DNA from: Escherichia coli
GTDB taxonomy: Bacteria > Pseudomonadota > Gammaproteobacteria > Enterobacterales > Enterobacteriaceae
NCBI RefSeq assembly: GCF_013122565.1
Contig: NZ_CP053258.1
DNA length: 64,000 nt
Strand: one strand, 5' to 3'
The notes below the pieces were generated by a model, which was given only the letters and a program-made list of their open reading frames with translations, was not told the DNA's origin and ran no database searches. Both the position numbers and the translations under genes were made by a program. Positions 8,601 to 10,865 of the stretch are shown here, piece by piece (within the stretch, counting starts at the first letter, position 1; every line of letters begins with the position of its first letter).

Positions 8601-8719
8601 ATTTTATACAGCATCTATCGCCGGATGCGATGTTTTGCTGAACACAGTCTGAGCCTGTAATAAACTTGTCATTTCCTGATTTTGATATGCTCATTCCAAC
8701 ATCAGAAGAAGGTTAAATT

Positions 8720-8881
8720 ATGGATGACAAACCATTGCAGGCTCTGGCTAATAAACTCAAAACACCGGCTCAAGAAAGTCAGCGTAATGGCTTCTTCCGA
8801 CTGCAACAGGTGAAGAATAACCAGCCCCGCATTACCGGTATCCCCGTCAACCATCAGCGGCCCCAGCCTGACATCGTCTGA
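8720..8881 (+). CDS. hypothetical small protein (53 aa) inside the cvrA-dadX islet
   Basis: ATG 8720 preceded by AAGGT SD at 6-nt spacing; no recognisable similarity; may be non-coding. Confidence 0.2.
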   Translation: MDDKPLQALANKLKTPAQESQRNGFFRLQQVKNNQPRITGIPVNHQRPQPDIV

Positions 8882-9267
8882 ACATATTCCCCCACGCAAC
8901 CTGCCGCGCTGAAGTAGCCCACAGAATACGCGTTTCAGACTGCTCAGTATCTGTAGTGGCGTTTCATCCGCCTGTAGCACCGGATGCATGAGCGATTTCT
9001 TATAGTTATTCCTTTGCTTAATAACGATTATTTCCGGGTCGTTCGCTCTCGTATTTTCTTAAATACGTCAGAGCGGCCTGGGCCGTAATACAACTTGTTC
9101 AGATCTGTTACGCATGTACCAGACCCGACACGGCATTTCTGACCAGGGAAAAAGTCAACGATGAGTAGTTATATCAGCGCAAATGACGTCCTGTGGCTCC
9201 TTTTCGGTGACCACATTCACGTCTCCTGCGCTGCCAGAGGATATTTATTTCAAGGATACGTAGCATT

Positions 9268-10704
9268 ATGGCCAGCTTTAAAGACATCCGCCCATTCGCC
9301 CCCGGCATTCCCCCATCTTCCATTAACCCAGGCGTACGCCCACCAGGGCAGTACTTCCTGCCGGTGGAACTCAAGAATGAAATTTTGCGGAACATGAAGT
9401 ATATCGGCCCGCAAATATTTAGCTGGGGTGATGACCACCGGCAGATCATTGACCTCAGTACCGCGGGCAAGGTGAAAATACATATGGTAGACAATACCAT
9501 CATCATGTTGGAGCGCCTGAATCCGAATCCGCAACATAACGAGTTCATGATGGTCGCCGAATGGTGCCAATGGGCTATGGAGCGGGATGGTTTGCAAGAA
9601 AACCTGCAAAAAAACCTGTACGAAATCCTGGAAGAAAACCAGCAAAACAAACAGTCAGAAATTCCCCAAGAAGACCTGAAAGAAAGTCTGGAAGAAATCA
9701 AGGAAAATATCCTGGAAGAAAACCTGCCAGCAAGCCGGATTGAAAACCGGGCAGAAGCATTGCGCAGATTGAAGGAATGTCTCATTACAAGACGGAGTAT
9801 GCTCAATCTTAGCAACCTTGGATTGACTTCACTCCCTGAAAATTTGCCGCCACATCTGATTGAATTTTACTGCAGTAAAAACGTGTTGACCGCGTTACCG
9901 AAGGTGATGCCAAAGTGGCTGCTGGTGCTTGACTGTACAGATAACGTCTTGATCTTGTTACCGAAGGTGCAGCCCTCAAAACTGATGGTACTGAATTGCT
10001 ATGACAACTGTATTATCTGGCTGCCTGAGCTGTCGACTAACCTGAGAGTGATTAACTGTTCTGCAAACTTCTTGCAATTTTTACCGCCGTCGATGCCCCA
10101 GTACCTGTATAAACTATCCTGTGCCGGCAACAATATTCACTCAATACCTGATGAGATGCTGGAGAACTTGACTCGCCTGAAAGTATTTGACTGTTCTAGT
10201 AACGATTTGATCTCTTCACCACGGCTGCCGCCCAAACTAATAATTTACTACTGTGGAGAAAACAAGTTTAAAACGGTACAGGTGCCGCAGCCCCAGAGCC
10301 TGAAGGTGTTTGACTGTAATGGTAACCCGTGGGACAAAGACAATTTACCGACGCTGCTCAAAGCCGTCGAGGGCCTGAAAAACCAGCAGGGTCTGGAGGA
10401 GCTTTTGGACTTTTTGCACAATGAAGGCCTGGTTGACCCGGAGGGACTGGAGAAGCTGGAGGATCTGGATGACCTTATGGATCTGGAGCTCCTGGATGAC
10501 CCGGTACTCCTGGAGCGCGTGAAGGTACAGGAGGACCTGGAGCTCTTGAATCAACAGTTGGGCCTGTTGAGTCTGGAAAGACAACAGGACTCGCAGCCTG
10601 TTAATCAACATTCTGAACATGAACCCGAATCTGCATCAAGGGTGAAGCGTGATTTATCTGAAGTCGAGTTCGAGTCAACAATGAAGCGTAAGCGTTTTAT
10701 GTAG
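9268..10704 (+). CDS. leucine-rich repeat protein with IpaH/SspH-like N-terminal plus LPX-type LRR domain, no NEL ligase domain, acidic C-terminal tail
   Basis: 478-aa ORF; RLKECLI motif followed by ~8 tandem ~20-aa repeats ending in LP (LTSLPENLP, VLTALPKVMP, ILLPKVQP, IWLPELS, QFLPPSMP, HSIPDEML); AGA/AGG codons and AT-rich stretches atypical for the backbone. Confidence 0.75.
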   Translation: MASFKDIRPFAPGIPPSSINPGVRPPGQYFLPVELKNEILRNMKYIGPQIFSWGDDHRQIIDLSTAGKVKIHMVDNTIIMLERLNPNPQHNEFMMVAEWCQWAMERDGLQENLQKNLYEILEENQQNKQSEIPQEDLKESLEEIKENILEENLPASRIENRAEALRRLKECLITRRSMLNLSNLGLTSLPENLPPHLIEFYCSKNVLTALPKVMPKWLLVLDCTDNVLILLPKVQPSKLMVLNCYDNCIIWLPELSTNLRVINCSANFLQFLPPSMPQYLYKLSCAGNNIHSIPDEMLENLTRLKVFDCSSNDLISSPRLPPKLIIYYCGENKFKTVQVPQPQSLKVFDCNGNPWDKDNLPTLLKAVEGLKNQQGLEELLDFLHNEGLVDPEGLEKLEDLDDLMDLELLDDPVLLERVKVQEDLELLNQQLGLLSLERQQDSQPVNQHSEHEPESASRVKRDLSEVEFESTMKRKRFM

Positions 10705-10865
10705 AACACCTGTGCGGTGAGTTCCGGGGAAATAGTGTCCATCATTTTAATGGGCACTATCATGGGAAATGGCTCTTTCACATTAACAACTACAGTTGTT
10801 GCCCAGCCGGATGGATGTTTTTTTTGCAACCAGAAGACGTTGCCTCCGATCCGGCTTACAACAAG

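Follow-up and report, generated by a model that had tools for sequence, protein, structure and literature searches.

The cvrA-dadX islet of Escherichia coli probably split an intergenic REP with an insertion sequence-linked mosaic

In the window (the whole stretch of 64,000 nucleotides of E. coli DNA that was analyzed), a foreign mosaic of 2.2 kb (about 8635-10835) lies between the convergent genes cvrA and dadX, and the question that this locus raises is how such an islet came to be there. The G+C content of the islet is 0.474, compared to 0.527 for cvrA and 0.576 for dadX. The flanking genes are 97 to 99% identical to those of K-12 (cvrA, 97.2 to 97.9% identity to the K-12 and IAI39 genes; dadX, 98.4% identity to the K-12 gene), compared to a best identity of only 96.6% for the islet proper. 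The latter value had first pointed to an Escherichia other than E. coli as the source of the window, a reading that was dropped in view of the identity of the flanking genes. A search of positions 8400-11000 against Rfam gave no family match. The first-pass annotation of this DNA had proposed that the islet was inserted into an intergenic REP and that two short motifs at its edges were the split halves of that REP and defined the insertion boundaries. The results described below suggest that a REP was indeed probably split by a mosaic linked to insertion sequences (IS), and that the right motif is a repeated copy of the REP 5' arm. The features of the locus are listed in Table 1.

Table 1. Features of the cvrA-dadX locus, in coordinates of the window
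Feature	Position	Strand	Basis or remark
cvrA (K+/H+ antiporter)	6864..8600	+	Stop codon 8598-8600; ORF list and annotation of homologous loci
Ancestral intergenic context and REP-like palindrome 5' arm	8601..8636	+	Gapless alignment to empty sites
Small predicted hairpin, ATCGC/GCGAT stem 8617-8631, then UUUU	8616..8636	+	Terminator-like site scan
Left direct repeat (DR-L) GCCGGATGCGATGTTTT	8620-8636	+	Contains motif 1
Linker of 14 nt, GCTGAACACAGTCT	8637..8650	+	GCTGAACGCAGCCT in most E. coli alleles
Invertible segment	8646..8749	.	Inverted repeats at 8646-8661 and 8734-8749 form its ends
IS256-family (IS1414-like) decayed 5' end	8651..8841	+	IRL 8651-8680; transposase start codon 8720
ORF of 53 aa	8720-8881	+	Scrambled N terminus of IS256-family transposase
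Islet DNA upstream of the leucine-rich-repeat ORF	8842..9267	+	Plasmid-collection matches to this E. coli locus only; no Rfam family
Leucine-rich-repeat (LRR) ORF of 478 aa, YopM/SspH/SlrP/IpaH (LPX) class	9268..10704	+	
IS66-family decayed 5' end	10688..10795 (end approximate)	+	IRL starting GTAAGCG; conserved hairpin 10732-10760
Predicted long-loop hairpin	10805..10856	-	DR-R AGCCGGATGG (10805-10814) pairs with CCGATCCGGCT (10846-10856); inner GCAAC/GUUGC stem
Right direct repeat (DR-R) GCCGGATGGATGTTTT	10806-10821	+	With T8 (10818-10825) spans 10806..10825; 16/17 positions match DR-L
Right unit, GCCGGATGGATG-T8...CCGATCCGGCTTAC			
REP loop remnant GACGTTG (10836-10842), REP 3' arm, and ancestral context to the dadX stop codon	10836..10865	+	
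REP 3' arm CCTCCGATCCGGCTTAC	10843-10859	+	Outside the span given in the first-pass annotation
dadX (catabolic alanine racemase)	10866..11936	-	Stop codon 10866-10868; ORF list and locus annotations

Both motifs were found at the islet edges. The first, GCCGGATGCG, lies 20 nt past the cvrA stop codon at 8620-8629 (previously placed at about 8621-8631), and the second, GCCGGATGGATG at 10806-10817, is followed by the run of eight T residues (10818-10825) that had also been reported, 41 to 60 nt short of the dadX stop codon. The similarity between the two sites is longer than had been recognized, with both sharing GCCGGATG(C)GATGTTTT at 16 of 17 positions and with one 1-nt indel. In a local alignment of the boundary regions, none of 2,000 shuffles equaled the observed score, which also beat 999 of 1,000 shuffles in a separate run. 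When inferred older E. coli alleles were used (the left site of IAI39 and the common right site), 1 of 2,000 shuffles did as well, and 11 of 1,000 in a second run. The repeat is weaker in certain derived alleles, such as those of K-12 and TB06052, and for TB06052 the score was matched by 465 of 2,000 shuffles. Evidence for a repeat that stretches past 17 nt, to about 30 nt (TTTGC..AAC.CAG), is no more than suggestive (88 of 2,000 and 225 of 2,000 shuffles; P about 0.04 to 0.11). DR-R was present in every islet and remnant allele seen, and all 28 metagenome loci that carry the window-type 3' arm have it as well. Because the two motifs have the same orientation, a single palindrome could not have supplied them as its complementary arms.

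K-12 had been suggested as the comparator in which an intact REP should be visible, with the lack of a REP-like element there counting against insertion. This comparison fails, as K-12 is not empty at this locus: its spacer has no single REP but retains the two motifs, at a distance of 300 nt, with an islet remnant between them that is internally deleted and in part inverted. The remnant includes an inverted IS256-family fragment of about 100 nt, followed by a 1.9-kb deletion, together with the final 74 nt of the LRR ORF and the IS66 remnant. Given this remnant state, reliance on K-12 would have wrongly led to rejection of the REP idea. In CDC#03-98, an independent internal deletion of the islet was found. 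Among 5,426 complete E. coli genomes, 834 (15%) had the full islet and 4,297 (about 79%) had some islet DNA; about 64% of the genomes carried a decayed remnant and about 21% were empty. It is the islet-free genomes that are the correct comparators, and insertion into a REP was supported there.

In the outgroups E. albertii, cryptic-clade Escherichia L004 (labeled E. coli, with a divergent locus of 91% identity), Citrobacter, Enterobacter, and Cedecea, the gap between cvrA and dadX is 19 to 110 nt and contains no LRR gene. Most of these spacers hold REP-type palindromes, and those of Citrobacter youngae and Enterobacter asburiae are canonical species-type REPs with GTAGG. The true empty sites, which were found in B2-type E. 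coli, the cryptic Escherichia clade, and E. albertii, carry a single REP-like palindrome, located between the stop codons of the two genes. Among E. coli, SF-468, EcPF40, ST131, and APEC O2-211 have one palindrome each, with predicted folds of -22 to -38 kcal/mol (z = -4 to -8); over all empty-site units, the range is -20 to -38 kcal/mol, with z values of -3.5 to -8.3.

The palindromes were compared with the REP Y and Z2 consensus sequences of Nunvar et al. 2010 (PMC2817692). When positions 8611-8630 of the window were joined to positions 10838-10868, the product aligned end to end with REP Y (score of 31, compared to 12.6 ± 2.7 for shuffled sequences; 0 of 1,000 as high). The E. albertii empty site aligned end to end with both Y and Z2 (at most 1 of 1,000 shuffles), and GATGCGACGCTGG of Z2 is shared by the L004 empty site and, with one mismatch, by that of SF-468 (0 of 1,000). 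As a positive control, a genuine REP of the window (49926) scored 45 against the consensus; a clear REP pair lies at 49926-49990. The GTAG/CTAC end tetranucleotide is absent from the spacer unit. Consensus REPs end in GGCCTAC or TCCTAC, compared to GGCTTAC for the 3' arm of the window and GGCATAC for E. albertii, each one base off, and the empty sites of SF-468 and L004 lack the tetranucleotide altogether; the unit was therefore considered a degenerate REP. The E. coli empty-site units are also perfect palindromes, unlike typical REPs. The unit is extragenic, located between the stop codons of the convergent genes, and the annotation of MG1655 lists no REP in this spacer. As the REP arms of the window are 2.2 kb apart, the palindromic unit is split. 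Both the islet-free genomes and the alignment of the rejoined arms with REP Y support the proposal that the islet was inserted into an intergenic REP.

The left flank aligned without gaps over 36 to 37 nt to the empty sites of SF-468, L004, and E. albertii (0 of 1,000 shuffles in each case) and agrees with the first 10 to 11 nt of the Y and Z2 consensus sequences. Over positions 8598-8634, the window follows the left context of the empty sites and the REP 5' arm colinearly. The motif proposed as the left boundary stands, as part of the REP 5' arm, with the islet edge within about 5 to 15 nt. The small hairpin in this arm (predicted fold, -12.5 kcal/mol; z = -2.1) could, as inferred from the fold, act as a weak terminator-like 3' end for cvrA. 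The linker that follows it is missing from the empty sites and from the IS. It is possible that the linker is REP loop sequence, because its TGAACGC is the REP-Y core when compared by eye with the consensus.

At the right end, the second motif does not mark the boundary but lies 20 to 30 nt inside it, and the true 3' arm is located beyond the end coordinate that had been given. A multiple alignment showed colinearity with the empty sites for the 3' arm and the adjoining context, and ATCCGGCTTAC of the window matches ATCCGGCATAC in the E. albertii arm. The approximately 30 nt before the loop remnant (10806-10835) are in neither the empty-site sequence nor the IS. DR-R base-pairs with the 3' arm, so that dadX keeps a hairpin behind it; this hairpin has a predicted fold of -29.5 kcal/mol (z = -5.65), with none of 200 shuffles as stable, and is presumed to form the 3' end of the dadX transcript. 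Positions 10796-10865, which include DR-R and the 3' arm, were also considered, on account of a resemblance seen by eye, as a possible IS66 tnpA segment or right inverted repeat (IRR). This assignment was rejected, as 57 to 99% of shuffles had an equal score and there was no IRR match.

Two decayed IS ends are present in the islet. Positions 8651-8757 are 83.6% identical to nt 1-110 of an IS256-family element, and positions 8783-8841 are 83% identical to its nt 322-380. For the reference copy, L091, an 8-bp duplication, TTGCATCC, marks where the element begins and ends. Matches to this remnant were found in 728 plasmid records. About 190 nt of the 5' end is left, and no IRR or further transposase sequence of this family was found at 8500-11000 or elsewhere in the window. 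The segment at 8646-8749 is inverted in K-12-type genomes, and accordingly window positions 8651-8749 match the K-12 minus strand. A second copy of the 8-mer CGCAGCCT (10592-10599) was examined as an IS256 target duplication; it lies inside the continuous LRR ORF without an adjoining IRR, and the match was considered a coincidence. The other remnant matches the starts of IS66-family elements on more than 1,000 plasmids and was aligned to the left ends of L094, L095, and L096. Homology to IS66 fades by about 10795, positions 10796-10865 are not IS66-like, and neither an IS66 IRR nor IS66 interior sequence was found.

Between the IS remnants lies the LRR ORF, of which the last approximately five codons and the stop codon fall within the IS66 end, which truncates it. 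In sequence matches to the PDB, the best-scoring protein was YopM (2.6e-28), followed by SlrP and SspH2 (about 1e-24). The LPX-type LRR region (residues about 150-340) matched YopM, SlrP, SspH1/2, and IpaH with E values of 1e-11 to 1e-28. NCBIfam gave partial SlrP and SspH2 matches, and LRR_4 was the only Pfam match, with none to the NEL ubiquitin-ligase domain (PF14496). All close homologues found were from E. coli and Shigella, at the same chromosomal locus, and more distant homologues (34% identity) do have NEL. The protein thus resembles the YopM/SspH/SlrP/IpaH type III effectors in its LPX-type LRR and differs from them in the lack of NEL and in its truncation by IS66; a role as an effector would be putative, judged from sequence. 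It was also considered whether this gene is espR1. However, espR1 is Z2242 in O-island 62, a different locus (PMC4060028). No paper linking dadX and cvrA with an LRR effector was found, and a 2025 paper on IS1414 and astA does not mention the cvrA-dadX locus.

In islet-free Escherichia, convergent cvrA and dadX lie about 56 to 60 nt apart, with one degenerate Y/Z2-like REP between them whose strong predicted hairpin presumably ends or stabilizes both transcripts; in the history that we propose, this was the ancestral state. IS transposition into this REP would then have delivered the LRR gene or assembled it there. In the window, the REP 5' arm lies beside cvrA (8618-8636), where it is predicted to fold alone into a small hairpin with a U tract, and the 3' arm lies beside dadX (10843-10859), with a duplicate of the 5' arm in direct orientation (10806-10821) at the right edge of the islet. 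Later deletions would have removed most of both ISs, and in most E. coli the islet would have decayed further. Our preferred guess for the duplication of the 5' arm is that insertion or recombination took place at two nearby points of the REP, so that the intervening stretch was left on both sides. IS-mediated insertion into the REP is the likeliest origin of the islet, and REPs are targets of five IS families, including IS256 (Tobes and Pareja 2006, PMC1525189). Since no complete IS and no IS-end target duplication survive at the locus, we infer delivery by IS from the remnants.

Other histories would have to account for the same boundaries. It is scarcely tenable that the two motifs are complementary halves of one REP that would be seen intact in an islet-free K-12. 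The left motif is indeed the REP 5' arm, and islet-free genomes do have a REP there; however, the motifs are direct rather than inverted, the complementary arm is at 10843-10859, and K-12 has both motifs 300 nt apart around a remnant instead of a single REP. That the islet is ancestral at this position and the short spacers are deletions would fit the islet DNA in about 79% of complete E. coli genomes, but it is almost inconceivable given that the spacer is short in every outgroup, the empty sites of E. coli and E. albertii have the same intact palindrome architecture, and the islet, in which two IS remnants lie, is lower in G+C content than the flanking DNA. The right motif might also be unrelated to the left one by descent, as a chance or selected match to GCCGGATG that was carried by the islet or evolved locally, and pairing with the orphaned 3' arm would then have restored a hairpin behind dadX. 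In line with this, GCCGGATG occurs seven times in the window compared to 2.6 expected (a count that 3 of 100 shuffles also attained), certain alleles have a much weaker repeat, and the resulting hairpin is very stable. The match nonetheless extends beyond the REP core to include GATG(N)TTT, a sequence that is in no empty site or REP consensus, and the alignment score was reached by 0 of 2,000 shuffles for the window and 1 of 2,000 for the inferred older alleles. In one allele, moreover, a G-to-A change in the 3' arm is uncompensated, so that selection for pairing is not apparent. Such an independent origin of the right motif seems decidedly unlikely.

An att-like or Campbell-type scar is an unlikely source of the repeats as well. 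In this case a circular molecule with its own REP-like sequence would have recombined at the REP 5' arm, through RecA acting on about 17 to 30 nt of homology or through a site- or hairpin-specific enzyme, and would have left hybrid repeats at both ends. The direct repeat does bracket the whole mosaic and may reach about 30 nt, in which case it would run up to the IS256 IRL on the left side and, on the right side, to the point where REP homology resumes, and REP-REP recombination is known for lambda bio phages and the amplification of F'128, as cited in PMC1525189. However, the longer form of the repeat is statistically insecure, and no recombinase gene or remnant was found in the islet. When the repeat was checked as a target duplication or att core, GCCGGATGCGA was present once in the empty sites and twice in the window, but the part of the repeat beyond it (TGTTTT...) was missing from every empty site seen. 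Nor was an excised allele with a solo repeat detected, as a pattern scan of metagenomes gave 0 matches. A synthetic-junction query of the 5,426 genomes gave no single-piece, high-identity match in the 40 listed of 5,424 matching records, a spread sample that leaves room for rare alleles, and no preinsertion allele with the extra bases (8637-8650 and 10806-10835) was present among the metagenome loci and in the scan. It is very unlikely that the duplication of the 5' half (17, possibly about 30 nt) is the signature of a capture process specific for the REP hairpin rather than of two ordinary IS events; for example, a RAYT-like or other enzyme might nick the base of the extruded hairpin, with repair synthesis then bringing in foreign DNA and copying the arm so that both genes keep a 3' hairpin.

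With IS-mediated insertion as the preferred reading, the cvrA-dadX islet is a fresh instance of a known phenomenon, in which a REP serves as a landing site. As in the insertions of IS1397, ISKpn1, and IS621 into REP/BIME sequences (PMC1525189), mobile DNA lies within a REP palindrome with arms on either side, and an IS256-family end is located 14 nt from the REP 5' arm. The islet differs from those cases in that the ISs are remnants of about 110 to 190 nt, with no readable target duplication, and in that the insert is a mosaic that includes a cargo gene of non-IS origin. A further difference is the length of the flanking REP-arm repeat, which at 17 nt or more is above the target duplication of 8 to 9 bp that is expected for the IS256 and IS66 families. 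Intergenic polymorphism and strain-specific loops in E. coli have been associated with BIMEs and REPs (Bachellier et al. 1997 and Chiapello et al. 2005, as cited in PMC1525189). The cvrA-dadX locus is similar in having a conserved backbone gene pair with empty, full, and remnant spacer alleles centered on a REP and in carrying a horizontally acquired virulence-type gene, and it differs in having a single degenerate REP rather than a multi-REP BIME.

No paper describing the cvrA-dadX islet locus was found in the literature. The islet anatomy overturns no current view; it maps exactly a widespread polymorphism of the E. coli chromosome and adds one further case of a REP as the landing site for IS-borne cargo. 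The dadX-cvrA spacer of K-12 is the leftover of a lost effector-like gene and not pristine intergenic DNA, and since many K-12 spacers are remnants, this strain is poorly suited as an empty-site reference for islets. The MG1655 annotation of a partial IS1414, "IS1414 (partial)," and of ymgM covers the same IS256-family fragment as window positions 8651-8749, inverted in K-12, and ties it neither to a REP nor to the LRR islet. The LRR gene may be of interest for the study of orphan effectors, and ymgM for that of de novo small proteins.

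Outgroup loci were collected by scanning species-representative genomes for DadX; they came from a cryptic-clade Escherichia (flanking genes sharing 91% identity with the window), E. albertii, three Citrobacter, Enterobacter, Cedecea, and others. Where cvrA and dadX remain adjacent (Escherichia, Citrobacter, most Enterobacter, and Cedecea), they are separated by 19 to 213 nt (mostly 19 to 110 nt) with no LRR gene, and most of these spacers contain REP-type palindromes, several of them canonical (e.g., GTAGGCCTGATAAGCGCCGCGCCATCAGGCAA in C. youngae). In more distant genomes in the scan, the gap extends to kilobases or cvrA is absent. 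Islet-free E. coli (SF-468, EcPF40, ST131, and APEC O2-211) have a 56-nt spacer with one palindrome. Hairpins at empty sites have predicted folding energies of −20 to −38 kcal/mol (z, −3.5 to −8.3). Because outgroup and islet-free spacers are short, mostly carry REP-type palindromes, and lack the LRR gene, the 2.2-kb islet (G+C, 0.474, versus 0.527 for cvrA and 0.576 for dadX) is inserted DNA, in a spacer that has long been a REP site.

On the left, the stretch that covers the cvrA stop codon and the cvrA-side (5′) arm of the palindrome (window 8598-8634; TAA...GGATGCGAYGCT) gave a gapless alignment with the empty sites (0/1,000 shuffles for each of three empty sites). On the right, GACGTTG (10836-10842), CCTCCGATCCGGCTTAC (10843-10859), and AACAAGTTA line up with the empty-site loop, dadX-side (3′) arm, and context, and ATCCGGCTTAC matches the E. 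albertii arm ATCCGGCATAC. When 8611-8630 was joined to 10838-10868, the product (GCCGGATGCGACGTTGCCTCCGATCCGGCTTAC) aligned over its full length with the Y-type REP consensus of E. coli, taken from Nunvar et al. 2010 (PMC2817692), with a score of 31 (shuffles, 12.6 ± 2.7; 0/1,000 as high); a genuine REP in the window scored 45. The REP here is degenerate, ending in TTAC rather than CTAC; its empty-site counterparts in E. coli are perfectly palindromic. The foreign DNA, approximately 8635-10835 (± a few bases), lies inside this REP. The first-pass annotation had proposed an islet in a split REP, with the two edge motifs as its halves. That proposal holds for the REP site and for the left edge, but the right half is not the second motif; it lies at 10843-10859, outside the span of 8615-10830 thought to cover both halves.

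Features of the cvrA-dadX islet and the control REP in the window
Feature	Coordinates	Remarks
First motif, GCCGGATGCG	8620-8629	20 nt past the cvrA stop codon (8598-8600)
IS256-family remnant, decayed 5′ end	8651-8841	IRL, transposase start codon at 8720, second fragment
LRR ORF	9268-10704	478 aa; YopM/SlrP/SspH/IpaH class
IS66-family remnant, decayed 5′ end	10688 to about 10795	IRL GTAAGCG; conserved leader hairpin, 10732-10760
Second motif, GCCGGATGGATG	10806-10817, then T8 at 10818-10825	41-60 nt before the dadX stop codon (10866-10868)
Genuine REP pair, GCCGGATGCGGCGCTGATTGCGCCTTATCGTGCCTAC plus inverted partner	49926-49990	In-window positive control for the REP consensus test

Both motifs are present at the islet edges as first described. 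They share GCCGGATG(C)GATGTTTT, with 16 of 17 positions matching and both copies pointing the same way, and because the repeat is direct, they cannot be two arms of one palindrome. The second motif duplicates the REP 5′ arm a short distance inside the right boundary, so that a direct repeat of this arm flanks the whole mosaic. The 8-mer GCCGGATG occurs seven times in the window versus 2.6 expected. The repeat score for the boundary regions was reached by 0/2,000 shuffles in the window and, for the same repeat in older-looking E. coli alleles, by 1/2,000 (11/1,000 in another run).

The arm duplication might be due to chance or convergence, but part of the repeat, GATG(N)TTT, is missing from all empty sites seen and from the REP consensus, which makes common descent of the two copies more likely than coincidence. 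The repeat may extend through TTTGC..AAC.CAG; on the left this would take it as far as the IS end, and on the right as far as the resumed REP homology, but statistical support for the longer repeat is not secure (P of about 0.04 to 0.11). We favor insertion or recombination at two closely spaced points in the REP, with the interval left on both sides; a Campbell-type or att-like event is another option. No preinsertion or solo-repeat allele was found with a junction query (40 sampled of 5,424 matching E. coli records) or in a metagenome scan. Five IS families, IS256 among them, are documented to target REPs, and BIMEs have been linked to strain-specific loops in E. coli (PMC1525189). The cargo, which is bracketed by IS remnants of two families, was probably brought or assembled by IS transposition into this REP, and later deletions would have removed most of both ISs. 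The locus is a well-resolved new instance of a known phenomenon and of modest significance.

The proposed alignment with K-12 was run, but K-12 is not an empty site and so provides no test of an intact REP. Window 8500-8661 and 10631-11000 match K-12 directly and 8651-8749 matches inverted (annotated 'IS1414 (partial)' in MG1655); K-12 thus still has both motifs, the final 74 nt of the islet ORF, and everything to the right of the ORF, and 8750-10630 has been lost. CDC#03-98 has a second, independent internal deletion (about 8713-10593) without inversion. Internal deletions are recurrent; the interior has been lost at least twice independently with both edges kept, in K-type genomes (inversion plus deletion) and in CDC#03-98. 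Among 5,426 complete E. coli genomes, 834 have at least 80% of the islet, 4,297 have some islet DNA, and about 1,130 have none. Other genomes have IS3/IS629 insertions (IAI39 and NCCP 13906) or a frameshifted ORF (K_EC180).

The IS256-family remnant is 83% identical to copies on >700 plasmids, and a 53-aa ORF (8720-8881) is the scrambled N terminus of its transposase. No NEL domain was found in the LRR protein, whose close homologues, most of them annotated as hypothetical, are confined to E. coli and Shigella. Homologue lengths of 437 to 486 aa suggest variation in repeat number; a 12-nt periodic repeat (9581-9763) in the N-terminal part encodes ENLQ/EEN-type tetrapeptides. Since its last codons and stop lie inside the IS66-family remnant, the gene is truncated or fused. 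The ORF ends within the IRL (10688-10704; GTAAGCGTTTTATGTAG), the C terminus (...KRFM*) is IS derived, and the original 3′ end is missing. Resemblance of 10796-10865 to IS66, seen by eye, failed testing.

The second motif pairs with the 3′ arm (AGCCGGATGG, 10805-10814, with CCGATCCGGCT, 10846-10856; 31-nt loop) in a structure predicted on the dadX strand (−29.5 kcal/mol; z = −5.65). On the cvrA side, the 5′ arm and upstream context form a predicted small hairpin followed by UUUU (−12.5 kcal/mol), flagged as terminator-like in a terminator scan. From these predictions, the edge hairpins may act as transcript ends.

K-12 ymgM (b4740; MG1655 1240188-1240463) starts MDDKQLQA, which corresponds to the beginning of the transposase in the IS256-family remnant, start codon included. 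Because the ∼100-nt remnant is inverted in K-12, between repeats 8646-8661 and 8734-8749, this IS-derived start points outward and reads over the REP 5′ arm and the 3′ end of cvrA in the antisense direction. The inversion seems to have created YmgM as a chimeric ORF; the window, in which the segment is not inverted, has no counterpart ORF in that frame. In many genomes (L002, L003, L084, and L087 to L089 among the compared loci), RefSeq/PGAP marks cvrA as 'incomplete, missing C-terminus' and places a short antisense 'hypothetical protein' on top of its 3′ end. The cvrA ORF looks full length in the window, and the flag is probably an annotation artifact tied to the YmgM-like antisense ORF.

Elsewhere in the window, the e14 prophage at icd is absent (39143-42118), unlike in K-12, and about 1.5 kb of additional sequence lies between rluE and icd (40616-42118), including two small ORFs that overlap (40981-41430, 149 aa; 41415-41765, 116 aa). 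The ycgH autotransporter region has about 1.3 kb (29306-30638) that is absent from K-12, in which ycgH is a pseudogene; in the genomes that match best, an intact 'ECIAI39_1904 family autotransporter adhesin' is annotated.
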